Of a stretch of DNA of 60,000 bases, positions 2,993 through 60,000 are shown one piece after another. The translations under genes were made by a program, and so were the position numbers. Source of the DNA: Squalus acanthias. Its lineage: Eukaryota. The first letter of the stretch is position 1, and each line of letters starts with the position of its first letter. The DNA lies in NCBI GenBank assembly GCA_030390025.1, contig CM059432.1, positions 77,688,001-77,748,000 on the forward strand, read 5' to 3'. The notes under the pieces were generated by a model. It saw nothing but the letters and a program-made list of their open reading frames with translations, ran no database searches and was not told the origin of the DNA.

Positions 2993-4508
2993 CTTTTTTT
3001 TATTCGATTATGGGATGTGGGCATCGCTGGCAAGGCCAGCATTTATTGCCCATCCCTAGTTGCCCTTGATCAAGTGGTGGTGAGCCACCTTCTTGAAACG
3101 CTGCAGTCCGTGTGGTGAAGGTACTCCCACAGTGTTGTTAGGGAGGGAGTTCCAGGATTTTGACCCAGCGACGATGAAGGAATGGCGATATACTTCTAAG
3201 TCAGGATGGTGTGTGACATGGAGGGGAACTTGGAGTTGGTGGTGTTCCCATGCTCCTGCTGATCTTGTCCTTCTAGATGGAAGAGGTCGCGGGTTTGGGA
3301 GGTGCTGCCGAAGAAGCCTTGACGAGTTGCTGCAGTGCATCTTGTAGATGATACACACTGCAGCCATGGTACGCCGTGGTGGAAGGAGTGAATGTTTAAG
3401 GTGCTGGATGGGGTGCCAATCAAGCGGGCTGCTTTGTCCTGGATGGTGTCGAGCTTCTTCAGTGTTGTTGGAGCTGCACTCATCCAGGCAAGTGGAGAGT
3501 ATTCCATCACACTCCTTACTTGTGCCTTGTAGATGGTAGAAAGGCTTTGGGAAGTCAGGCGGTGAGACACTCGCCGCAGAATACCTAGCCTCTCACCTGC
3601 TCTTGTTGCCACAGTATTTATGTGGCTGGTCCAGTTAAGTTTCTGGTCAATAGTGACCCCCAGGATGTTGATGGTGGGGGATTCGGCAATGGTAATGCCA
3701 TTGAATGTCATGGGGCGGTGGTTAGACTCTCGCTTGTTGGAGATAGTCAATGCCTGGCACTTCTGTGGCGTGAATGTTACCTGCTACTTATCAGCCCAAG
3801 CCTGAACGTCGTCCAGATCTTGTTGCATGTGGGCACGGACTGCTTCATTATCTGAGGAGTTGTGAATGGCACTGAATACTGTGCAGTCATCAGCAAACAT
3901 CATAATTTCTGACCTTATGTTGGAGGGAAGGTCATTGATGAAGCAGTTGAAGATGGTTGGGCCTAGGACACTGCTCTGAGGAACTCCTGCAGCGATGTCC
4001 TGGGGCTGTGATGATTGACCATCAATCACCATAACCATCTTCCTTTGTGCTAGGTATGACTCCAGCCAGTGGAGAGTTTTCCCCCCGATTCCCATTGACT
4101 TCAGTTTTACTAGGGCTCCTTGATGCCACACTCAGTCAAATACTGCCTTGATTGAGAGTAGACTGATGGGGCGGTAATTGGCCGGATTGGATTTGTCCTG
4201 CTTTTTGTGGACAGGACATACCTGGGCAGTTTTCCACATTGTCGGATAGATGCCAATGTTGTAGCTGTGCTGGAACAGCTTGGCTAGAGGCGCAGCTAGT
4301 TCTGGAGCACAAGTCTTCAGCATGATAGCCAGGATGTTGTCAGGGCCCATAGCCTTTGCTGTATCCAGTGCGCTCAGCCATTTCTTGATATTACGTGGAG
4401 TGAATCGAATTGGCTGAAGACTGGCTTCTGTGATGGTGGGGACCTCAGGAGGAGGCCAATTTGGATCATCCACTTGGTACTTCTGGCTGAAGATGGTTGC
4501 GAACACTT
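2993..4508 (-). mobile_element. Family-A LINE (APE-RT, CR1-superclade/Zenon-like), 3' portion with RT, internal deletion near 4150
   Basis: ORFs with PVHKKQDKSNPANYRPISLL, GVPQSSVLGP, FADD, LGVTIDQKLNW; poly(A) tail at 2993-3001; continues at 10087 after a CR1 insertion. Confidence 0.9.
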
Positions 4509-6571
4509 CATAGAAACATAGAAAAATAGGAGCAGGAGTAGGCCATTCTGCCCTTCAAGCCTGCTCCGCCATTCAATATGATCATGGCTGATCCTCTATC
4601 ATCTCAATACCATATTCCCGCTCTCTCCCCATACCCCTTGATGCCTTTTGTGTCTAGAAATCTATCTATCTCCTTCTTAAATATATTCAGTGACTTGGCC
4701 GCCACAGCCTTCTGTGGTAGAGAATTCCACAGGTTCACCACCCTCTCCTCATCTCAGTCCTAAATGTCCTACCCCGTATCCTGAGACTGTGACCCCTCGT
4801 TCTAGGCCCCCCAGCCAAGGGAAACATCCTCCCTGCATCCAGTCTGTCTAGCCCTGTCAGAATTTTATACCTTTCCATGAGATCCCCTCTCATTCTTCTA
4901 AACTCTGGTGAATACAGGCCTAGTTGACCCAATCTCTCCTCATACGACAGTCCTGCCATCCCAGGAATCAGTCTGGTGAACCTTCGCTGCACTCCCTCTA
5001 TGGCAAGTATATCCTTTCTTAGGTAAGGAGACCAAAACCGCACACAGTACTCCAGGTGTGGTCTCACCAAAGCCCTGTAAAACTGTAGTAAGACATCCTT
5101 GCTCCTGTACTCAAATCCTCTTCCAATGAAGGCCAACATACCATTTGCCTTCCTAACTGTTTGCTGCACCTGCATGTTTACTTTCAGTGACTGGTGTACA
5201 AGGACACCCAGGTCCCTTTGTACATCAACATTTCCCAATCTATCACCATTTAAATAATACTCTGCCTTTCTGTTTTTCCTACTGAAGTGGATAACTTCAC
5301 ATTTATCCACGTTATACTGCATCTGCCATGTATTTGCCCACTCACTCAACTTGTCTAAATCGCCTTGAAGCCTCTTTGCATCCTCCTCACAACCCCACTC
5401 TGGGATGCAGATTATCAGGCCCTGGGGATTTATCAGCTTTCAGTCCCATTAATTTCTCTAGCACTATTTTTTTACTAATACTAATTTCCTTTAGTTCCTC
5501 TTTCTCACTAGACCCTTGGTTCCTGAGCATTTCTGGGAAGTTATTTGTGTCCTCTTCCGTGAAGACAGAACCAAAGTATTTGTTTAATTGCTCAGCCATT
5601 TCCTTGTTCCCCATTATAAATTCTCCAGTTTCTGACTGTAAGTGACCTACAGTTGTCTTCACTAATCTTTTTCTTTTTACATACTTGTAGAAGCTTTTAC
5701 AGTCCGCATTTATGTTCCTTGCAAGTTTACTCTCATACTCTATTTTTCCCATCTTAATCAATCTCTTGGTCCTTTTTTTCTGAATTCTAAACTGTCCCAA
5801 TCGTCAGGCTTGCTACTTTTTCTGGCAACTTTATATGAGTCCTCTTTGGATCTAATGCATTCGTACCTTAAATGTTAGCCATTGCCTATCCACCATCATG
5901 CCTTTTAATGAAGCTCCCCAATCTATCATAGACAACTCCCTCCTCATACCTTCGTAGTTTTCTTTGTTCCAATTTAGGACCCTAGTTTCGGATTGGACTA
6001 CTTCAAATTCCATCTTAATGAAGAATTCTATCATGTTATGGTCACTCTTCCCTAAAGGACTGCGCACAACAAGATTATTAATTAACCCATTCTCATTGCA
6101 CAATACCCAATCTAGGATAACCTGTTCCCTAGTTGGCTCCTCAACGTACTGGTCTAAAAAACTATCTTGTACACACTCCAGGAATTCATCCTCCACAGTA
6201 TTATTGCTAATTTGGTTTGGCCAGTCTATATGTAGATTAAAGTCACCCATGATTACTATAGTTACATGCATCTCTAATTTCCTGCTATATGCCATCTCCT
6301 ACATTACCACTACAGTTTGGAGGCCTATGTATAACTCCCACCAATGTTGTCTGCCCCTTGGTGCTTCTTAGCTCTACCCAGACTGATTCTACATCTTGAT
6401 TTTCCGAGTCAATATCCTTTCTCACTATTGCTCTGATTTCATCCTTTACTAACAACGCCACCCCACCTCCTTTTCCTTTCGCCTGTCCTTCCTAAATATT
6501 GAATATCCTTGGATATTCAGCTCCCAGCCTTGGTCACCCTGCAGCCATGTCTCCGTAATCGCAATTATATC

Positions 6572-10086: not shown

Positions 10087-11132
10087 TGTCTTTTGCACTC
10101 GCATGCTGGGCTCCATCATCATTGAGGATGGGGATATTCATGGAGCCTCCTCCTCCCGTTAGTTGTGTAATGGTCCACCACCATTCACAACTGGATGTGG
10201 CAGGCCTGGAGAGCTTTGATCTGATCCGTTGATTGTGGGATCGCTTAGCCCTGTCTATAGCATGCTGCTTCCGCTTTTTAGCATGCATGTAGTTCTGTGT
10301 TGTAGCTTCCCCAGGTTGGCACCTCATTTTTAGGTATGCCTGGTGCTGCTCCTGGCATGCTCTTCTACACTCCTTATTGAACCAGGATTGGTCCCCTGGC
10401 TTGATGTAATGGTAGAGTGAGGGATATGCCAGGCCATGAGGTTATAGACTGTGGTGGAATATAATTCTGCTGCTGCTGATGGCCCACAGTGCCTCATGCA
10501 TGCCCAGTTTTGAGCTGCTAGATCTGTTCTGAATCTATCCCATTTAGCATGGTGGTAGTGCCACACAACACGATGGAGGGTGTCCTCAGTGTGAAGATGG
10601 GACTTCGTCTCCACAATAACTGTGCGGTGGTCACTGCTACCAATGCTGTCATGGACAGATGCATCTGCGACAGGTAGATTGGTGAGGACGAGGTCAAGTA
10701 GGTTTTTCCCTCGTGTTGATTCTCTCACCACCTGTCGCAGGCCCAGACTGGCAGTTATTTCCTTCAGGATTCGGCCAGCTCGATCAGTAGTGGTGCTACC
10801 GAGCTACTCTTGGTGATGGACGTTGAAGTCCCCCACCCAGAGTACATTCTGCGCCCTTGCTACTCTCGGTGCTTCTTCCAAGTGGTGTTCAACATGGCAG
10901 AGTACTGATTCATCAGCTGAGGGAGGGTGGTAAGTGGTAATCAGCAGGAGGTTTCCTTGCCCATGCTTGACCTGAAGCCATGGGACTTCATGGGGTCCGG
11001 AGTCAATGTTGAGGACTCCCAGGGCCACTCCTTCCCGACTGTATACCACTGTGCCACCACCCCTGTGGGTCTGTCCTGCCGGTGGGACAGGACATACCCA
11101 GGGATGGTGATGGGAGAGTTTGGCACATTGGC
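10087..11132 (-). mobile_element. Family-A LINE, 5' (APE endonuclease) portion of the copy at 2993-4508, 5'-truncated
   Basis: GGGTVVY, YHPPS, GDFNVHH, LDLVLTN, SDH motifs; sequence is continuous with 4508 when compared to 50060-50095. Confidence 0.9.
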
Positions 11133-11819
11133 TATGGAGGAGTTTGGGACCTTCCGACCCTGTGGCAGGAGTGCATCCAATTGTGCCAAGCTGACACTTG
11201 TAGATGATCAAAGTACTACAAAAAGTTTCCTTTCTACCTGTTACATCTTGATCGAGGCCACATGAAAAGCACTTAGAGAACTGTATAGCTCTCTCATAGC
11301 TTAACATGCTTGTCCTTACTGTACCAGTGCAAACTTTCTAGCTGCAACTTTGAGTTGCAACTATTGTTGCACTTATATCTGTAGAGGTGCCTGAAAGCAA
11401 GCTTCCAAAAAACTTCGCTGTATGATGCACGTTTGTTTATTTACACACACTGAAATGCAGTATAGGAGCTTGGGTGTCACTGCTGTACTCTTAAAATTGC
11501 AACTTCCCTGTACTTAAGTGTCAGCCTTGACAATGTGCTTAAGAAAGCAGCACATAATACGAGGAGAAAACCCCACACAGGAGGAGGGCTTTCAGTGCAT
11601 TTGAGGACTTTTGTCAAAATCTTAGAGATTGAGAGTAGAGAGGGGTGGAGGAATGAGAAACTAGAGGCCTCTCTCAGGACTCAGGACCATTCTTTTCCTG
11701 TTTCCCTTGATCCCTCTATTCAAAGACTCGAATACAATACCATGATACACATTACCATGTCAGTATTATTTGAAGGGGTGTTTTGTTACCATAATTCTAA
11801 TATTTCTCTCCAGTTCATA

Positions 11820-16911: not shown

Positions 16912-17596
16912 AATAATAATAAATAACAACAGAAAACGCTGGAAAAACTCAGCAGGCCAGGCAGCATCCGTGGAGAGAAAAACAGAGTTAACGTTTCAGG
17001 TCGAAGACCTTTCGTCAGAACTGGAAAAAAACAGGCAATGGAATAGATTTTAAAGCAGGTTTAGGGGCAGCACCTCATCTTTCGATTAGGCACTCTACAG
17101 CCCTCTGGACTCAACATAGAGTTCAACAATTTCAGATCATAACCTCGGCCCCTATCACATATATATATATTTTTTAATCCACACTTTTTGTTTGGCCTTT
17201 TTTTCTCTCCTCCCACATGGCAGCTGTCCTTCATTCTGCCAGCGCATTTCACACTTCATCTGGAGCCATCCTTTGTTCCTTAACCTGTCACATTACCACC
17301 TCCTCTTGTCTTGAATATATCTTAATGTCTCTCAATGTCTCTCAATCTCTCCTGCTTTCTATCCTATCACTGACCTTCCCTTTTGTTCTTTCATCCCCTC
17401 CCCCATTTCCCCGCCCCTAAACCTGCTTTAAAATCTATTCCATTGCCTGCTTTTTTCCAGTTCTGACGAAAGGTCTTCGACCTGAAATGTTAACTCTGTT
17501 TCTCTCTCCACGGATGCTGCCTGGCCTGCTGAGTTTTTCCAGCGTTTTCTGTTGTTATTTCGGATTTCCAGCATCCGCAGTATTTTGCTATTGTAT
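16912..17596 (+). mobile_element. Penelope-like element remnant with inverted pseudo-LTR and minimal hammerhead motifs
   Basis: ~148-bp inverted arms 16921-17068 / 17413-17560; GIY-YIG-type C-terminus QHLIFRLGTLQPSGLNIEFNNFRS*; CTGACGA-stemII-GAAA at 17463-17487; 14-bp flanking duplication AAGCTATTTTATAT. Confidence 0.85.
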
Positions 17597-17956
17597 AAGC
17601 TATTTTATATCTTGTATTGTGTAATGAGACAGGGTTGATTAGTAATCTCATAGTAAAGGATCCTCTGGGGAACTGTGATCATAATATGATAAGTATTTCA
17701 CTTTCAAACTCAATGTGAAATTCTAAGTCTGAAACCAGAGTCTTAAACTTAAATAAAGCCAATTACATATGTGTGAGGGGTGAGTTCACTAAGGTAGATT
17801 GGGAAATTAGATTAAAATGTATGACGGTAGATAAGCAGTGACAAAAATCTAAAGAAATATTCCAAAATTCTCAATGAAAATGCATTCCATTGAGAAATAA
17901 AAACGCCACGGGAAAAGTGATCCATCCATGGCGAACTGAAGAAGTTAAGGATAGTA

Positions 17957-18047
17957 ACAACAGAAAACGCTGGAAAAACTCAGCAGGCCAGGCAGCATCC
18001 GTGGAGAGAGAAAGAGAGTTAACGTTTCAGGTCGATGACCTTTCATC
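17957..18047 (-). mobile_element. 91-bp Penelope pLTR fragment (hammerhead core plus downstream hairpin)
   Basis: Near-identical to 16926-17018; flanked by 17-bp duplication AGAAGTTAAGGATAGTA. Confidence 0.85.
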
Positions 18048-18100
18048 AGAAGTTAAGGATAGTATTAGATTAAAAGAAATGGCATATAATTTTGCTAAGA

Positions 18101-20509: not shown

Positions 20510-21712
20510 TGATACTCCATCTCTTAGTTCAGCTCACCCAATCTTAGCTTCTACTCTCTAATGGTAGGAAGGCGATTATAAAAAGGAGCAGAATCAGGGA
20601 AGACATTTCTTCCTCCTCGACTATGATGATGATTATGATGAGGACCAGGCCACAAGGGAGACACCGGAGCATGATTCCGCCAAATATTCCTCTGACCCAA
20701 CTCCTTACAACTCACTCCCTGTGGCAATTGCTTCCTCACTCACAGTCAGCAATTCAGATACCTTCACCCTGGGGCAATTAGATAGTGTTTGTGGGGACAT
20801 GCCACCAGGTAATTCACAGAGCATGAAGGAGCTGGAGAAGTGGAAAATGGGTGAGGATGTGCTATATTCCCAGCAGTGGCTGAGGAGAAGGCTGTCTATG
20901 TTGTGACAGTTCACATTGCCACAATTTGAGGGAGCTGGTAGAACGGACAGCTGCTGTCCTTGTATTAACACCAGTCAAGAACCCCCGCACCAATGTGGAG
21001 CAAAAATACAATAGGGCTTAGGCCTCCACCCAAGTTCTTGTGGAACTTATGATCAGTACGTTAAAGCAGCACTTCTAATGTTTGGAAGATAAGGTGGAAT
21101 CCAACAGCACAGCCCCAAGGAAGTGTTGAAAATGATTTGTATCTGCTGTGTGCTGTACAACTTCAATATTGTAGAGGGGATCCCATGCAGCCAAAAAAAT
21201 TGGAAGGTGAGCCTGTAGCCTTGGTTGTATAGGAGGAAGAGGAGGAGGAAGAGAAATGGCACATGCACAGCCAGGCGGACTGCTGCACGAGTGATTGACA
21301 GGTTCTGTTAAGCTGATCCCATAGCCTATTGAGATCCGAAAGGTGACATGCATGCTAATTGGAGCCCAAAATTTCAACAGCAGCAAACACAGCGTTGGCG
21401 AGCAAAACTGCATCAGTGCTTGGGCCTCTGATCTTGAGGGCCTCTGATCTTGAGGACCTCTGCCCCATAGGACACCCTGCGGTTGTCACTCACTCAATGG
21501 TACTCAGCTGGATTCCAAAACCTTCTTGCATGGGTACACAGATGTCAGAACAGCATGGTTAAATTTTTTTCACCATTCCAAGTAGGGTGCTTTAAAGATT
21601 GTCAAAGGACTGAATGAAGATCTTCTGCTGATTAATCAGGGCAGTTGTACAGCACACAGTAGACGCAAATCATTTTCAACACTTCCTTGGGGCTGTGCTT
21701 TTGGATTCCACC
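20510..21712. pseudogene. Scrambled remains of second Harbinger: Myb exon 3 and HARBI1-like transposase C-terminus
   Basis: 20962-21311 (+) reads VLTPVKNPRTNVEQKYNRA*ASTQVLVELMISTLKQHF*CL...SPKEVLKMICICCVLYN...EEEEEEE...IDRFC* (with frameshifts); Ser/Thr-rich Myb exon-3-like text after acceptor TTTAACAG at ~20508. Confidence 0.75.
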
Positions 21713-47217: not shown

Positions 47218-48069
47218 TAGTGGTCATGATGCGGAGATGCCGGTGTTGGACTGGGGTGGACAAAATTGAGAGGTCGCACAACACCAGGTTATAGTCCAAC
47301 AGTTTTATTTGAAATCACAAGCTTTCGGAGCTATCGATTGCCCCTTCCTCAGGTGAAGTAAATTAGATACAGAATCACCAAAGCATATATAGATAGAGAA
47401 CAAAGCATGTGTACCTTACAATTGCAGACCACTAAATTAAATCATCCTGACTATCTGCCGAGGTGTGATAAAGTTAATCAAGTCAGCCAGGAAGGTACCA
47501 CATCAAAGACATAGCAAGATACAACTGAGACAATGAGGTGTAGTCGCAGGGGTTCTAACGTGTCAAAAGCTGCCGTCTGTATGTAAAACGAAAAGCTTTA
47601 AAATTTTTACTTTTTTACTGGGAAAATTTTTACTTTTTTACTGGGAATCACATCTGTGAACAAGCCAACGACGACTCGAGTCCGGATCACGTCATGTATC
47701 GTGACATAAACCCAAGATCCCGGTTGAGACCGTCTTCATGAGTGCAGAACTTGGCTATCAGTTTCTGCTCGATGATTTTGCGTTGTCGTGTGTTTCTAAG
47801 GTTGCCTTGGAGAACGCTTCCTTCCTGATGTGGTACCTTCCTGGCTGACTTGATTAACTTTATCACACCTCGGCAGATAGTCAGGATGATTTAATTTAGT
47901 GGTCTGCAATTGTAAGGTACACATGCTTTGTTCTCTATCTATATATGCTTTGGCGATTCTGTATCTAATTTACTTCACCTGAGGAAGGGGCAATCGATAG
48001 CTCCGAAAGCTTGTGATTTCAAATAAAACTGTTGGACTATAACCTGGTGTTGTGCGACCTCTCAATTTT
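47218..48069 (-). mobile_element. Penelope-like remnant with 244-bp inverted pLTR arms and two hammerhead motifs
   Basis: Arms 47262-47505 / 47826-48069 (one mismatch seen); internal GIY-YIG C-terminus EQKLIAKFCTHEDGLNRDLGFMSRY; CTGAGGA...GAAAGCTT at 47979-48012; 12-bp duplication TTTATAAACAGA. Confidence 0.9.
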
Positions 48070-48512
48070 ATAAACAGAGACAGAGTACAAAAGCAAGAAC
48101 GTTATGCTAAACTTTTATAACTCACTGGTAAAGCCTCAGCTTGAAATTGTCTTCAATTCTGGACACCATACTTTAGGAAGGACATCAAAGCCTTATAGAA
48201 GGTGCAGAAGAGATGTACTAGAATGGTACCAAGGATGAGGGACTTTAGTTATGTGGAGACTGGAAAAGCTGGGGTTGTTCTCCTTAGAGCAGAGAAGATT
48301 AAGAGATTTGAGGTGTTCAAGATCATGAACGGTTTTGAGAGAGTAAATAAAGAGAAACCGTTTCCAATGGCAGAAGGGTCAGTAGCCAGAGGGCACAGTG
48401 TTAGTGATAGGCAAAAGAAGTAGAGGTGACACGAGGAAACATTTTTTTTTATACAGCGAGTTGTTGTGATCTGAAATGCAGCACCTGAAAGGGTGGTGGA
48501 CGCAGATTCAAT

Positions 48513-51500
48513 TGACGGGAACAGTAGCATAGTGGTTATGTTACTGGACTAGTAATCCAGAGGCCTGTACTAATAATCCAGAGACGTGAGATCAAATCCC
48601 ACCACGGCAGCTGGGGAATTTAAATTCAGTTAATTAAATAAATCTGGAATAAAAAGCTAGTATCAGTAATGGTGACCATGAAACTATTGGATTGTCGTTA
48701 AAAACCCATCTGGTTCACTAAGGTCCTTTAGGGAAGGAAATCTGCCGTCCTTACCTGGTCTGGCCTATATGTGACTCCAGACCCACAGCAATGTGGTTGA
48801 CTCTTTACTGCCCTCTGAAATGGCCCAGCAAGCCACTCAGTTGTAACAAACCGCTACGATAAACAATAATAAGAATAAAACTGGACGGACCACCCGGCAT
48901 CGACCTAGGCACCGACTACGGACACGTCAACGGCAAACCCAGCTCAGCCGACCCTGCAAAGTTCTCCTTACGAACATCTGGGGCATATGCCAAAATTGGG
49001 AGAGCTGTTGCAAAGACTAGTCAAGCCTGACATAGCCATACTCACAGAATCATACTTTTCAGCCAACGTCCCAGACTCCTCCATCACCATCCCTGGGTAC
49101 GTCCTGTCCCACCGGCAGGACAGACCCACCAAAGGTGGTGGCACAGTGATATACAGTCGGAGTGAGTGGCTCTGGAAATCATCAACATTGACTCCGGACC
49201 CCATGGCTCATGGCTTCAGGTCAAGCATAGGCAAGGAAACCTCCTGCTGATTACCACCTACTGCCCGCCCTCAGCTGATGAATCAGTACTCCTCCATGTT
49301 GAACATCACTTGGAAGAAGCACGGAGAGTAGCAAGGGCACCGAATGTACTCTGGGAGGGGGGGGGACTTCAATGTCCATCACCAAGAGTGGCTCGGTTGC
49401 ACCACTACTGACCGAGCCCTGAAGGATATAGCTGCCAGTCTGGGCCTGCGACAGGTGGGGAGAGAACCAACACGAGGGAAAAACCTACTTGACCTCGTCC
49501 TCACCAATCTACCTGTCGCAGATGCATCTGTCCATGACAGCATTGGTAGCAGTAACAACCGCAGTCCCGTCTTCACACTGAGGACACCCTCCATCGTGCT
49601 GTGTGGCACTACCACCGTGCTAAATGGGATAGATGCAGAACAGATCTAGCAGCTCAAAACTGGGCATCCATGAGGAGCTGTGGGCCATCAGCTGCAGAAT
49701 TGTATTCCACAACAATCTGTAACCTCATGTCCTGGCATATCCCACCATTACCATCAAGCCAGGGGACCAACCCTGGTTCAATGAGGAGCGTAGAAGAGCA
49801 TGCCAGGAGCAGCACCAGGCGTACCTAAAAATGAGGTGTCAACCTGGGGAAGCTGCAAAACAGGACTACATGCATGCTAAACAGCGGAAGCAGCATGCTA
49901 TAGACAGGGTTAAGTGATCCCACAATCAACGGCTCAGATCAAAACTCTACAGTCCTGCCACATTGAGTCGTGAATGGTGGTGGACCATTAAACAACTAAC
50001 GGCAGGAGGAGGCTCCATGAATATCCCCATCCTTAATGATGGTGGAGCCCAGCACGTGAGTGCAAAAGACAAGGCTGAAGCGTTTGCAATCATCTTCAGC
50101 CAGAAGTGCCGAGTGGATGATCCATACTGGCCTCCTCCGGAGGTTCCCACCATCACAAAAGCCAGTCTTCAGCCAATTCGATTAACTCCACGTGATATCA
50201 AGAAATGGCTGAGCGCACTGGATACAGCAAAGGCTATGGGCCTCGACAACATCCCGGCTGTCGTGCTGAAGAACTGTGCTCAAGAACTAGCTGCGCCTCT
50301 AGCCAAGCTGTTCCAGTACAGCTACAACACTGGAATCTATCCGACAATGTGCAAAGCTGCCCAGGTATGTCCAGTCTACAAGAAGCAGGACAAATCCAAT
50401 CCGTCCAATTACCGCCCCATCAGTCTACTCTCAATCATCAGCAAAGTGATGGAAGGTGTCGTCGATAGTGCTATTAAGCGGCACTTACTCACCAATAACC
50501 TGCTCCCGATGCCCAGTTTGGGTTCTGCTAGGACCACTCGGCTCCGGACCTCATTACAGCCTTGGTCCAAACATGGACAAAAGAGCTAAATTCCAGAGGT
50601 GAGGTGAGATCAAGGCAGCATTTGACCGAGTGTGGCATCAAAGAGCCCTAGTAAATGTAAAAATGTCAATGGGAATCAAGGGGGAAAACTCTCCACTGGC
50701 TGGAGTCATACCTAGCACAAAGGAAGATGGTTGTGGTTGTTGGAGGTCAATTATCACAGCCCCAGGACATTGCTGCAGGAGTCCCTCAGGGCAGTGTCCT
50801 AGGCCCAACCATCTTCAGCTGCTTCATCAATGACCTTCCCTCCAGCATAAGGTCAGAAGTGGGGATATTCGCCGATAACTGCACAGTGTTCAGTGCCATT
50901 CGCAACTCCTCAGATAATGAAGCAGTCCATACCTGCATGCAGCAAGACCTGGATGACATTCAGGCTTGGGCTGATAAGTGGCAGGTAACATTCACGCCAC
51001 ACAAGTGCCAGGCAATGACTATCTCCAACAAGCGAGAGTCTAACCACCGCCCCTGGACATTCAACGGCATTACCATTGCTGAATCCCCCGCCATCAACAT
51101 CTTGGGGGGGTCACCATTGACCAGAAACTTAACTGGACCAGCCACATAAATTCTGTGGCAACAAGAGCAGGTCAGAGGCTGGGTATTCTGTGGCGACTGT
51201 CTCACCTCTTGATTCCCCAAAGTCTTTCCACCATCTACAAGGCACAAGGTCAGGAGTGTGATGGAATACTCTCCATTTGCCTGGTTGAGTTCAGCTCCAA
51301 CAACACTCAAGAAGCTCGACACCATACATGACATAGCAGCCCGCTTGCTTGGCACCCCATCCACCACCTTAAACATTCACTCCCTCCACCACCGGCGTAC
51401 CGTGGCTGCAGTGTGTACCATCTGCACGATGCACTGCAGCAACTTGCCAAGGCTTCTTCTACAGCACCTCCGAAACCCGCGACCTCTTCCACCTAGAAGG

Positions 51501-51757
51501 ACAAGGGCAGCAGGCGCATGGGAACACCATCCCCTACAAGTTACACACCATCCTGACTTGGAAGTTTATCGCCGTTCCTTCATCATCGCTGGATCAAAAT
51601 CCTGGAACTCCCTCTCTAACAGCACTGTGGGAGTACCTTCACCACAAGGACGACAGCGGTTCAAGAAGGCGGCTCACCAGCACCTTCTCAAGGGCAATTA
51701 GAGATGGGTAATAAATGCTGTCCTTGCCAGCGACGCGATGAACGAATAAAAAAAAAA
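48513..51757 (+). mobile_element. Full-length family-A LINE with tRNA-derived 5' head, single APE-RT reading frame (disrupted in this copy)
   Basis: tRNA-like head 48517-48605; APE from LLTNIWG (48964) with [37 protein letters not shown]; stop at 51701; hairpin and A-tail; both ends defined by the interrupted CR1 host. Confidence 0.92.
48525..48599 (+). promoter_or_regulatory. Pol III type-2 internal promoter (A and B boxes) in tRNA-Thr(AGT)-like head
   Basis: A box TAGCATAGTGG (48525-48535); anticodon arm CTGGA-CTAGTAA-TCCAG (48544-48560); B-box-like AGATCAAATCC (48589-48599, diverged from GGTTCRAATCC). Confidence 0.75.
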
Positions 51758-51887
51758 GTAACTTTCAAAAGGGAATTGGATATATAGAGCAGGGGAGTGG
51801 GATTAATTGGAAAGCTCTACCAAAGAGCCGGCACAGGCACGAAGGGCCTAATAGCCTCCATCTTTTCTATATTATTCTATGATTCTA

Positions 51888-52629: not shown

Positions 52630-54150
52630 TTACACTTTAGGAAGGATGTCAAGGAAGGATGTCAAGGACTTAAGAGAGGGTGCAGAGATTTACTAGAATG
52701 GTACCAGGGATGAAAGACTTCAGTTATGTGGAGAGACTAGAGAACTGGGGTTGTTCTGCTTAGTGCAGAGAAAGTTAAAGGGAGATTTGATAGAGCTGTT
52801 CAAAATCATGAAGGTTTTTTTTTCGTTTATGGGATGTGGGCGTCGCTGGCAAGGCCAGCATTTATACAATGAAGGAATGGTGATATGCTTCCAAGTCAGG
52901 ATGTTGTGTGACTTGGAGGGGAACTTGGAGGTGGCAGTGTTCCCATGTGCCTGCTGCTGTTGTTCTTCTAGGTGGAAGAGGTCGTGGGTTTGGGAGGTGC
53001 TGTCGAAGAAGCCTTGGCGAGTTGCTGAAGTGCATCTTGTAGATGGTACACACTGCAGCCACGGTACGCCGGTGGTGGAGGGAGTGAATGTTGAAGGTGC
53101 TGGATGGGGTGCCAATCAAGCAGGCTGTTTTGTCCTGGATGGTGTCGAGCTTGTTGTTGGAGCTGCACTCATCCAGGCAAGTGGGGAATATTCCATCACA
53201 CTCCTTACTTGTGCCTTGTAGATGGTGGAAAGGCTTTGGGGAGTCAGGAGGTGAGACACTCGCCGCAGAATACCTAGCCTGACCTGCTCTTGTTACCACA
53301 GTATTTATGTGGCTGGTCCAGTTAAGTTTCTGGTCAACGGTGACCCCCAGAATGTTGATGGTGGGGGATTTGGCGATGGTAATGCCGTTGAATGTCAAGG
53401 GGAGGTGGTTAGACTCTCGCTTGTTGGAGATAGTCATTGCCTGGCACTTCTGTGGCGCGAATGTTACCTGCCACTTATCAGCCCAAGCCTGAACGCCGTC
53501 CAGGTCTTGTTGCATGCGGGCATGGACTGCTTCATTATCTGAGGAGTTGTGGATGGCGCTGAACACTGTGCAGTCATCAGCGAACATCCCCATTTCTGAC
53601 CTTATGTTGAAGGGAAGGTCATTGATGAAGCAGCTGAAGATGGTTGGGCCTAAGACACTGCCCTGAGGAACTCCTGCAGCGATGTCCTGGGGCTGTGATG
53701 ATTGACCCTCAACCACCACAACCATCTTCCTTTGTGCTAGGTATGACTCCAGCCAGTGGAGCGTTTCCCCCCCCCCGATTCCCATTGACTTCAGTTTTAC
53801 TAGGGCTCCTTGATAGAGTAAATAAAGAGAAACTGTTTCCAGTGGCATAAGTGTTGGTTACTAGGGTGCACAGATTTAAGGTAATTGGCAAAAGATGTGA
53901 CATGACGGGAAAAAATTATGCAGCGAGTTGTCATGAGCTGGAATGCATTGTCTGAAAGGATGGTGGAAGCAGATTCAAGAATAACTTTCAAAAGGGAATT
54001 GAGTAAATACTTGAATGGGAACAATTTGCAGGATTATGGGGAGGGAGCAGTGGAATGGGACTAAATGGATAGCTCTTTCAAAGAAGCGGTGGCACAGGTA
54101 TGACGGGCCGAATGGCCTCCTGTGCTGTATCAGTCTATGATTCTATGATT
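52630..54150 (+). mobile_element. CR1 3' end split by a family-A insertion
   Basis: CR1 text ...ATCATGAAGG|TTGATAGAGTAAATAAAGAG continuous across the insert; TCTATGATTCTATGA tail. Confidence 0.85.
52815..53812 (-). mobile_element. Family-A LINE 3' fragment
   Basis: [26 protein letters not shown]-tail at 52815. Confidence 0.9.
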
Positions 54151-55950: not shown

Positions 55951-56519
55951 TTGTATTTTGAACTTTAATTTAAGATCACAGTCAAAATCAAAGGTTTCAC
56001 TTTCATTTATAAATGCTTTCATAAAAGAATTCATTCTGTGGTTATGTGATCGATTTCTAAAATCATTTCAAATAGTTATGTATCTCAGTTTTGGAGAATT
56101 GTTTTAGGGATCATTGTTGGGAGTAGAAAACTCTTCCCAATTAAATTGGTGGAACTGATTTTTTTCCAATCTCTCAAAAACTTTATTATAATTCTCAACT
56201 CACCCAGTTTCAGCCATTAATTCTGATGTCTCCAGTATTTCTTCCATCTCACATTCAGCTTTGGAATTATTATTTTTTTTAAACACGAGATTTCCAGCCA
56301 CAGATGAAATAACCAACTTACCCAAACAACATCTCCCCAGTTCAACATCTCCCCCTCCACAAAAAAAACACACCTTTCCTTTGAAACCAGAAGGATATTG
56401 TGAAATTCTTAATTACATAATATTAAGCGGTCCCCTATTACCTCAATGAGTTGTGTAACTAGGAACATGCCAATACAATACTGGGTCAGAATTGTTAGCA
56501 GAATTCAACTGGGAAAAAC

Positions 56520-56860
56520 TCTAGTTAGGCCTCATCTGGAATACTGTAATCAGTTAAGGTACCCTCACATGATGGGTGATAGAGGCCCTGGTAAAGGGCC
56601 GCTAGAATGATCCCTAGTTTAAAAACCCTTAGTTATCACAATAGGCCTAAGAAGCTGGGCCTTTTTATTATCGGAAAGCATAGGCTTTGGGGAGATTTAA
56701 TTGAAGTGTTCAAAATGAAGAACCTAAACTGTGTCTGTGTGGACAAACTATTTGAATGTAATAGGTCAGTGAAAATGAGGGGTCATGCATATAAGCTGAG
56801 CAAGCACAGGACTAGGTTAGATATCAGTAGGTTTTTCTTTAAGCAGAGGATGAATAAGGG
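56520..56860 (+). mobile_element. Old CR1 3' fragment
   Basis: [26 protein letters not shown]. Confidence 0.75.
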
Positions 56861-59761
56861 TGTGGGCAGGGGGAAGGAAACCAATGTTTTAGACAGTAAA
56901 CAAACTCCAAGATTTTCCTGATTCTCTGGACCAGTGATTTTTAAAATAGTCAAAAAATCTTTCTCCATGTTCCCAACTACTGTTGTTAAGATTTTTTTTT
57001 AAGTCTCCTCTCACTTTTTACATGGCCTTGAAAGCAGAGAGCCCTTGCATATCTTCTTCCTTTCTCCTAACTGTGAAGTTGTTCTAATCCTCCTAAATAT
57101 GAAATTAAATCTAATTAGGTAATTTCAATGTTCAGACTTCACAAAGCACCCAACAACTGTAGAAGTTCAAATGTAGAATAAAAATAGATATATGCACAAG
57201 CTGAAGCTCAAATGTTACCCAATGCCCCACAACACTGGTTTTAAAATACAAATGTACACCTGACATACCTTTGGTTATTTGAATGATAAAATAAGTCAGA
57301 TACTTTACATGGACAATAAATACTGCAAAAATAAATACAGGTTCATGGACTGTATTGTAAATCTTCACTATGACTTTATAAGCTTGCTAGGAGCAAGGTA
57401 AGGGAAGTGATGCAGCATAATTTCAGCATAACAAATGGAACCATCCACCTGATTGTCAACAGTAGTTCTACAAACTCTGACCCAAGTTTCTCAGAAACCC
57501 ATTGCTCCTCAGAAGGATTAACAATGTTATCATGAGAAAGAAATTTTTTTAAGAAAGCTAGCAAAATACATTGACCTATAACTGCATAAATTTTTAAGAG
57601 CCTTAATTGTACAATTTATCTTTGTGAATGCCATATATAGCCACAAGGGACATTACATTTTTAATGAGAACAATTTAGGACAAAAATAATGATCTATAAA
57701 AATTATGACAAGTTCAATGCATAAATCACACAGAACACTCCTTAGATAGTCTGGACATTAATTTATAATTTGAATGTGCCTATACATCAATCTTAAACTT
57801 GCCTGTATGATACAGAATAGAGGACATTTTGATCTATTTTCACTATTCTAATTATATAATCTAGAAATAATGTTGCAAAATCTTCTGATTAATAAAAAAA
57901 AATGTACCATTTACAAAAGAATGGTTGGAGCAAACTCACTGCAAATTTTAGGTGATAGAAAACATGGCTGTATAAATGCCGAACAAAGAGAATTGGTCTA
58001 CAGAGGAATTAATGGAATGCATTCAGGCAAGTATTACATTTGTCTCAATTAGTGGTACAGTTTAGGGAGCATCAATGTATAGTAAAAAGCAAAAAGTAGG
58101 CCTTGGTTCATACCCATGGGAACTCAGCCATGTTTAGGACCAATTTCAGGCAAGTTGCTGGGTGGAAAAGGCAGAGGCTAGAGGTTACCCAGAGGGAGAG
58201 AAGGGAAAAAAAGTGAGAGTCAGAGTCACGATCGAAGTGCTCCCCTATACCTCCTACCAGCTGATTTCTGATTCGACCAATATTCATGAATGCTTAGGAG
58301 CAGCTTGTTTGCCTGTCATATTGCCACAAATGGCATGTGGTCTTGGGATTCAAGCACAAAAATGCAAGCACATTAAAATAGTCTCTCAAATCTCAAATGG
58401 CTGACATTTATCTTACCTCCTCTCCATTTTCATTTTTGATCACTTGTTGTGCTTTCAAAATTTTGGTTGCTGCAATAGCAGATGCCAGTGCCTAAAATAA
58501 AGATGAATACTGGTAATTCCAATAGTATTGCTCACTGTGAGTCAGAGATAACGTTGATGCACGGGGAGGGGTTGAGATTTCCATTGAAAGAATCCGATAG
58601 CAGTTTGTAAGAGATCAACACAGAAATACTGAGCATTTTTTGACTGGAATGAAGAGTTTTACTTACCCAATACAAGTAGATAAATAAATAAGTTATATAA
58701 ATAAACCTCTGCATTTAACATTAGAGAGCAGCTCTTTACCTTTACGGTCCCTCTATTTCGCGGTGTTTTTTTTTTATATAGTGAGTGCCAAGAAGTATAA
58801 GAAAACGTTAAACTAATTTGCATCTTTCTTTTTTAAACTAACTATCTCTGCAACAATTAGTAAAATATTCTACTTACAAATTTAAAGTTCAGGACTTTCA
58901 TTCAGAACCTCCCTCCTTATAAACTTGAGGAATGGTACAGTCCTAGAATTTCAACAGTTTATATTAAGGTTTTGCTATTTTAGTTTGAGTTCCAAGATAA
59001 ATACAAATTTAAAAATGCAGGTTTAACCATTAGGAATATATTACAATACAGAAAGATTTAACTAATGCTAAATTTAGTCCAAAAGTTTTAATGTGTCACA
59101 CATTGGACATACTGCAATTTGCTAAATAAACAAACCATTGAATATAGTATCCTACATTTTTTTTTCAGGAAAGTTACCTCAGAAAAAGCTGAACAGTTCA
59201 TACTTTACTTGTTTTTGTGTAAGACATCAAAACAAAATTCTGGTTACTTTTACTGCTACTAAAAAATGTTTCCCTGGTCTCCGTAATCTTCTATTGAGAC
59301 ATAATTGTAGAGCCTAAAAACAGCGAGTCCTAGCATGCTCTGTGAATGACTATTGCTGTTGTCAAATCATAAGAAGTTTCTGGGGGCTGTAGACACATAT
59401 ACAATTGTAGCCTGCTACCTTATTTAGTCTCTTTAGTCAACAGTGCTAGCTCCATGAACTCAAACCTAGACTTCCCAAAGATGCAGAGGTATCCAACTGA
59501 AAATGTTGTTAGAATTGTGTTAAACACAGAAAATATTACTGGAAATTTAAGTTTCATAATTTTCATAGACATAGTATTTGTTGTCTTCATTGTCGTAAAC
59601 CTTATTTCCAGTCCTAAATTTCTCAGTTTAGCGAGAGTCCAAAATGATGGTTGAGGATTTTCCAAAAATATATGGCACTATTTCATTGGCAAACTTTGCC
59701 AACTACTCATTGTTGATTAGTTATTTTAAATTGTTCTTAGTAATTTTTCATTGGAAGTTTC

Positions 59762-60000
59762 TTTTTTTTTTAATTCATTCACGGGATGTGGGTGTTGCCG
59801 GCAAGGCCAGCATTTATTGCCCATCTCTAATTGCCCTCGAGAAGGTGGTGGTGAGGGCAGTTAATAGTCAACCACATTTCTGTGGGTCTGGAGTCACATA
59901 TAGGCTAGACTGGGTAAGGATGGCCGATTTCCTTCTCTAAAAGGACATTAGTGAACCAGATGGGTTTTTACGACAATCAGACAGCTTCATAGTCACCATT
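59762..60000 (-). mobile_element. SINE-like internally deleted derivative of family-A LINE (continues past window end)
   Basis: 59853-60000 matches LINE 5'UTR 48668-48815; 59762-59855 matches LINE 3' end 51673-51757; junction at a shared CTC. Confidence 0.9.

Follow-up and report, generated by a model that had tools for sequence, protein, structure and literature searches.

A short element in a Squalus acanthias locus, a probable internal-deletion derivative of the tRNA-headed elasmobranch Zenon LINE

How SINEs originate and what supplies their middle parts are questions still unanswered, since the source LINE has usually been lost. In sharks, parent and derivative coexist in huge numbers, the head and body of the short form can be recognized as 5' UTR of the LINE itself, and such deletions appear to be recurrent. 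The locus analyzed here, a 60,000-nt stretch of the Squalus acanthias genome (the window), holds a long element of this kind and, at its right-hand edge, a short one that the initial annotation read as SINE-like and formed by internal deletion of a tRNA-headed LINE. Is the short element such a deletion product, and is it a single accident or one copy of a mobile form? Internal deletion from a tRNA-headed elasmobranch Zenon LINE, whichever of these two forms it took, is the reading adopted here, with a probability of about 0.8.

Comparison of the window with itself by blastn resolves the short element into two parts of the long one. Positions 60000-59853 (minus strand) correspond to the LINE leader at 48668-48815 (88.6%, 149 columns, E 6e-47), and 59855-59751 align to 51673-51768. 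The trinucleotide CTC occurs at 48813-48815, 51673-51675 and 59855-59853, that is, on both sides of the junction, and the joint initially described, of the leader up to 48815 with the LINE end from 51676 and a loss of ~2.86 kb, is exact in blastn and in the alignments. Two details of that description are adjusted: the missing stretch is mostly coding sequence, as had been said, with ~59 nt of 5' UTR included, and the "last ~80 nt" of the LINE are 81 nt that begin 26 nt inside the ORF end. Inside the window the short element measures 239 nt and its ORF is gone. The leader alignment is unbroken up to base 60000; the head would start 151 nt beyond the window, giving a predicted length of ~390 nt. 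The features are collected in Table 1.

Table 1. Positions of the short element and of its long counterpart within the 60,000-nt window.
Feature	Positions	Strand	Remarks
Short element: leader (5' UTR body)	59853..60000	-	Equivalent to 48668-48815; continues past the window end
Short element: deletion junction	59853..59855	-	3-nt CTC microhomology
Short element: LINE tail, 81 nt	59772..59852	-	Equivalent to 51676 onward; last ORF codons and predicted 3' hairpin; aligned with five other tails
Short element: poly(A) tail, 10 nt	59762..59771	-	Sequence
Short element: TTTT run	59939..59942	-	From one extra T; no counterpart in the long copy or the dogfish consensus
Stretch missing from short element	48816..51675	+	2,860 nt; 5' UTR end and nearly the whole ORF
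Decayed full-length elasmobranch Zenon LINE	48517..51758	+	3,242 nt; one insertion inside a fragment of another LINE
Long element: tRNA-like head	48517..48600	+	A box 48525-48535; B-box-like motif 48590-48599
Long element: single endonuclease and reverse transcriptase frame	48875..51701	+	Frameshifts and stops; no ORF1

Microhomology of at least 3 nt is expected in 5.3% of random leader-to-3' joins, so the CTC fits a homology-guided jump without proving one; chance alone leaves it borderline. Three further explanations were rejected. For splicing, GT-AG and GC-AG ends are missing from all 4 registers, whichever strand is read, RNA pairing of the two deletion ends (-17.6 kcal/mol) is equalled or beaten by 21% of 500 random pairs, and local duplication of the long copy is at odds with leader differences that are not common to both copies and with a flank likeness that stops after 11 nt. 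In those 11 nt after the poly(A) (59751-59761 against 51759-51769), 9 positions are alike in the short and long copies, followed by divergence; one tail substitution is also common to the two copies and, together with the flank likeness, is possibly due to chance.

The long element has a leader of ~358 nt, a start codon position at ~48875, a stop at 51699-51701 and a poly(A) tail. Its ORF matches the Pfam domains Exo_endo_phos_2 (E 5.7e-7) and RVT_1 (E 4.1e-17), with three of five pieces matched, one below the cut-off. A single EN-RT ORF, the lack of ORF1, a poly(A) tail and a match to published consensuses are all found, and on this basis the element would be classed as Zenon. Protein matches at 62-81% identity with legible species names come from sharks and one ray. 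Several predicted gene models of sharks and rays (P0001, P0002, P0004, P0016, P0018-P0020) hold pieces of the LINE frame as exons, which are annotation artefacts or exonisation.

The tRNA likeness of the head is weak when the single copy is scored: the Rfam tRNA model gives 24.4 bits over the first 55 nt (E 0.014 in 801 nt), under the gathering score of 29, and neither a whole-window scan nor ARAGORN reports a tRNA in the head. Ten Zenon consensuses from the supplement of PMC13343379 were compared over the first 400 letters of each. By eye, all seven from sharks and rays open with the tRNA-like head and the leader, the dogfish ones being closest, and the three from hagfish and coelacanth lack the head within those 400 letters. 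The leader of the long copy differs from the dogfish consensus, over the same stretch and by eye, at 4 of 147 sites. Within the head, 48544-48582 is an imperfect duplication of the tRNA anticodon-arm region, and contigs of all four public runs discussed below carry an extra 39-nt tandem copy of this unit.

Contigs from these four runs, which represent four organisms, cover the long element heavily. In three of them, 922, 961 and 949 contigs have their 5' ends stacked at 48517, next to unrelated flanks. All four contain empty-site joints, from 48506-48514 to 51757/51762, that skip the whole element; the empty-site joints listed reach only 0.5-2% of flank depth. Contig starts and empty-site joints together indicate that head, leader, ORF and tail move as one unit. 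With the long form a real family and the two-part match exact, the initial proposal of an internal deletion from a tRNA-headed LINE is supported.

The distribution of TTTT runs bears on how this LINE may be transcribed. Over 7,797 nt of sense strand, the Zenon copies in the window hold a single TTTT where 5.6 would be expected, a count as low in 7 of 300 shuffles, although these copies overlap the same sequence; the long copy alone has 1 against 2.4 expected (81 of 300 shuffles, not significant). In another LINE of the window, 11 such runs occur over 4,311 nt. The scarcity fits a putative use of Pol III by Zenon. The TTTT gained in the leader of the short copy would be expected to stop Pol III there, and this copy is therefore probably not a source copy.

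The two elements are independent copies, as the initial annotation had it. By eye, comparison of the short element's leader with the dogfish consensus Zenon-2 gives differences at 13 of 147 sites, and the short element has none of the long copy's four differences (Fisher p 0.04 for 13 against 4, no differences in common). The short copy is thus the more diverged, which makes it older or places it in a separate subfamily.

Whether the deletion product ever became mobile is a question of its own. That the short element belongs, as a dead copy, to a mobile and recurrent short form, deleted from the lineage's own Zenon LINE and then copied in trans, is evenly balanced between being right and wrong, and ranks above a one-off origin, which is possible but doubtful. 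By the one-off account, microhomology-mediated joining took the middle out of one full-length Zenon copy, at or after its insertion, and the SINE-like result never became a mobile family. Junctions were sought by mapping the contigs of the four runs on the long element, a saturated search whose listing covers 15 of its 8,119 joints and, for joints with inserted letters, 12 of 800 rows. Among these the exact joint 48815->51676 does not occur in any of the four runs, and no leader-to-tail joint is found among the joints listed for the source organism's run; the absence of the exact joint from those listed speaks for a one-off.

Other copies in the window point the same way. Two of the four other Zenon copies have unrelated internal deletions, of 124 and 175 nt, which suggests that private, single-copy deletions are common; one lies at a 4-nt overlap and the other removes half of the tail stem. 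The segments 2994-4510 and 10087-11133 (minus strand) form one 5'-truncated Zenon copy divided by a 5.6-kb insertion of other LINE sequence, with its own internal deletion of ~175 nt at the 4-nt overlap. The copy at 52815-53814 (minus strand) is a Zenon fragment within a host LINE of the same kind as that around the long element; its 124-nt deletion takes out the 5' arm of the tail stem, and with half of that stem lost it cannot be a mobile template. In the alignment of the 10-kb piece, a gap of 1,706 nt is an artefact. The window also holds a 244-nt inverted repeat (47262-47505 and 47826-48069, 99.6% identity) directly upstream of the host LINE, and further short inverted repeats with 94-98% identity (16921-17560 and 17955-18051; 21093-21712).

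Against a one-off stand two other short forms. In run X10, among the 12 of 800 rows listed, the leader to 48805 is followed by 4 letters and then by 51683, at a contig depth of 609.5; X10 contigs tabulated elsewhere in the same search have depths of 3-15. The second, P0027, is read in antisense and joins the leader at 48814/15 to the tail at 51691/92. It was one of 4 matches in a profile search with the antisense frame spanning the junction, a query biased toward similar junctions; of the other three, P0025 has no relation to the element, while P0026 and P0028 consist of ordinary LINE tail, so that three matches bear a tail, P0027 included. The exact joint is missing from those listed, and two near-identical junctions exist elsewhere. 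Across the three short forms the left breaks fall within ~10 nt and the right breaks spread over 16 nt, the other two lying 7-16 nt further into the tail than that of the window. Such proximity would be rare for random deletion in 3.2 kb, and the parts retained are exactly the leader and the recognition tail. All three right breaks lie directly upstream of the predicted tail hairpin, a consensus fold of five tails that has no compensatory changes and is no better than shuffles (z -0.48). The X10 junction could be derived from that of the window by a further loss of 12 nt.

A different leader-to-3' joint, 48625->51530, occurs in runs X6 and X8 and is a further point for a one-off. Beside the break, at 48804-48806, a leader variant one letter shorter is found in 47 contigs of X10 and is also present in X6 and X8, but seldom in X1; the short form of the X10, X6 and X8 organisms may be marked by it. 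Contigs cover a leader site at 1.5-3.2 times the depth of a 5' ORF site, a kind of depth that cannot rank the parts. Searches further afield returned 0 matches to the leader motifs in viral, metagenome and genome collections, one distant locus only in a protein search of metagenome contigs, no match in plasmids, and no match in a word-index protein search across the junction.

The direction of descent separates repeated deletion from an older SINE. It could be that an old tRNA SINE with a Zenon-type tail came first and that the LINE captured its 5' part, with ~48815 marking a boundary between body and tail and not a deletion hot spot. The left break, almost constant in three sightings, agrees with this account, as do the greater distance of the short copy from the LINE consensus given above, the headless 400-letter starts of the non-elasmobranch consensuses, and the ability of LINE enzymes to jump onto small RNAs in vivo, as in R2 (PMC3414825, in part). 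The lineage states of the leaders argue against it. By eye, four sites in the leader of the short copy are of the dogfish type. One of them is a 2-nt indel, a length difference that sets the copy apart from the consensuses of white shark, catshark and whale shark over their first 400 letters. P0027, read by eye via its translation, is galeomorph-type at two sites, one with the state of the white shark, catshark and whale shark consensuses and the other with that of the whale shark consensus only, again within those letters.

Leaders of different lineages and different right breaks in the short forms are what repeated deletion predicts, whereas a single old SINE lineage would require repeated exchange, which makes deletion the simpler route. 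The leader also resembles neither the Deu nor the UCON3 body by eye. From two elements and few sites, the evidence favours repeated deletion from each lineage's LINE, and a SINE that preceded the LINE is improbable. Short forms basal to all long forms, the pattern named at the outset as incompatible with a deletion origin, are not what the data suggest: the two readable leaders resemble the long forms of different shark lineages. The further claim that this is the reverse of the usual fusion model goes too far. Zenon elements of hagfish and coelacanth (in their first 400 letters) and the Zenon derivative of butterflies lack the head, and a tRNA or SINE head was probably fused to the LINE before the split of sharks and rays, with deletion afterwards. 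One-step deletion extends the usual model of tRNA-plus-LINE fusion and does not reverse it.

A mis-join in the assembly, or a chimera in which a leader fragment without a head met a tail, would suit an element that is cut by the window end and a junction known from the assembly alone, but is very improbable, since the short copy has none of the local long copy's differences, similar junctions occur elsewhere (X10, P0027) and five DNA runs of two studies contain 0.80-0.91 of the words of 56000-60000, a figure that is not junction-specific. No RNA run is listed among those that share words with the window.

Under the preferred reading of a short form that is mobile and recurrent, an ancestor of the sharks and rays would have fused a head of tRNA origin plus the leader to a Zenon LINE. 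A jump between CTC repeats, during reverse transcription or DNA repair, may then have linked the leader end to the ORF end. The product of ~390 nt would retain a promoter-like head along with the observed 3' recognition tail, and keeping both would give a SINE architecture without further fusion. Cuts near the same leader position would recur across shark lineages, and some products would be amplified, as the junctions in X10 and P0027 partly indicate. A more general proposal, that the Zenon LINEs of sharks and rays are coding LINEs with a tRNA-type Pol III promoter that repeatedly yield SINE families by one hot-spot deletion at the leader end, is offered tentatively. If repeated SINE birth is the true reading, nature would have run the same experiment several times, and its outcomes could be dated and set side by side between genomes. 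Should the junction prove a one-off, the locus holds no more than a commonplace decayed copy of an unusual LINE.

The short element has features of two recognized classes. SINEBase defines a SINE as a non-coding element of <700 bp with a head that bears A and B boxes and derives from a Pol III RNA, Pol III transcription, the tail of a partner LINE and an amplified family; the short element is non-coding, measures 239 nt in the window and 390 nt with the predicted head, and has its 3' tail in common with its partner LINE. SIDEs carry both ends of one LINE with the middle gone, and are without a Pol III promoter or small-RNA head. The short element likewise consists of the 5' and 3' ends of one LINE without the middle, and would probably depart from SIDEs in having a small-RNA head, as the head of its parent is tRNA-like.

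The closest known relatives of the parent are the elasmobranch Zenon elements (SquAca_Zenon-1/2/3, CarCar, ScyCan, RhiTyp and HypSab; PMC13343379, in part), which share with it the head and leader, a single EN-RT frame without an ORF1, and a poly(A) tail. Their published lengths of 2,886-3,314 nt compare with 3,242 nt in the window. The main text of that paper mentions none of the terms tRNA, promoter, nonautonomous or internal deletion, and the head and short forms are not described in it. A literature search outside Repbase, Dfam, subscription journals and preprint supplements, which may hold such entries, found no account of a tRNA-headed shark LINE or of its short forms.

Among short shark elements, SacSINE1 and the Deu-SINEs (PMC2746220, PMC3747384, PMC4824008, each in part) are tRNA-headed with a CR1-group tail, the layout predicted here. 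Identity with them was rejected by eye, since the leader is unlike the Deu domain in the supplementary alignment of PMC7245038, which stands in for the SacSINE1 sequence itself; matches to two Deu motifs stay at chance level across the window and lie outside both the short and the long element. A SINE with a UCON3 domain was rejected on the same kind of comparison. R2 SIDEs are also deletion derivatives, and R2 copies with a U12 or tRNA 5' end acquired this small-RNA end by template jump; they differ in being ribozyme-based, specific to rDNA, low in copy number and not Pol III elements (PMC3414825, in part).

Persaeus is a SIDE of Lepidoptera, where Zenon deletion derivatives arose at least four times, at microhomologies (PMC6740152, in part). 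Like the shark form it is short (263-386 bp) and non-coding, keeps both Zenon ends, breaks at microhomologies, has repeated origins and clusters with its host's LINE. It is described in that source as having neither tRNA similarity nor a Pol III promoter, whereas the 5' end of the shark parent is tRNA-like, which would give its deletion product a SINE layout. Bov-tA, AfroSINE, SINE2-1_ACar and others (Kojima 2018, PMC5786205, in part) combine the 5' and 3' parts of one LINE with a small-RNA head, as the short element is predicted to do. In these bipartite-LINE SINEs a template switch supplied the head once the deletion had occurred, and RTE or Vingi served as donors, whereas in sharks the head is already on the LINE and the donor is of the CR1 group. 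Zenon deletion derivatives have thus been published before, as have SINEs put together from the two ends of one LINE (PMC6740152, PMC5786205, in the parts cited), and the short element joins these two known kinds: it is a probable Zenon deletion derivative with a predicted SINE layout owed to the tRNA-like head of its parent.
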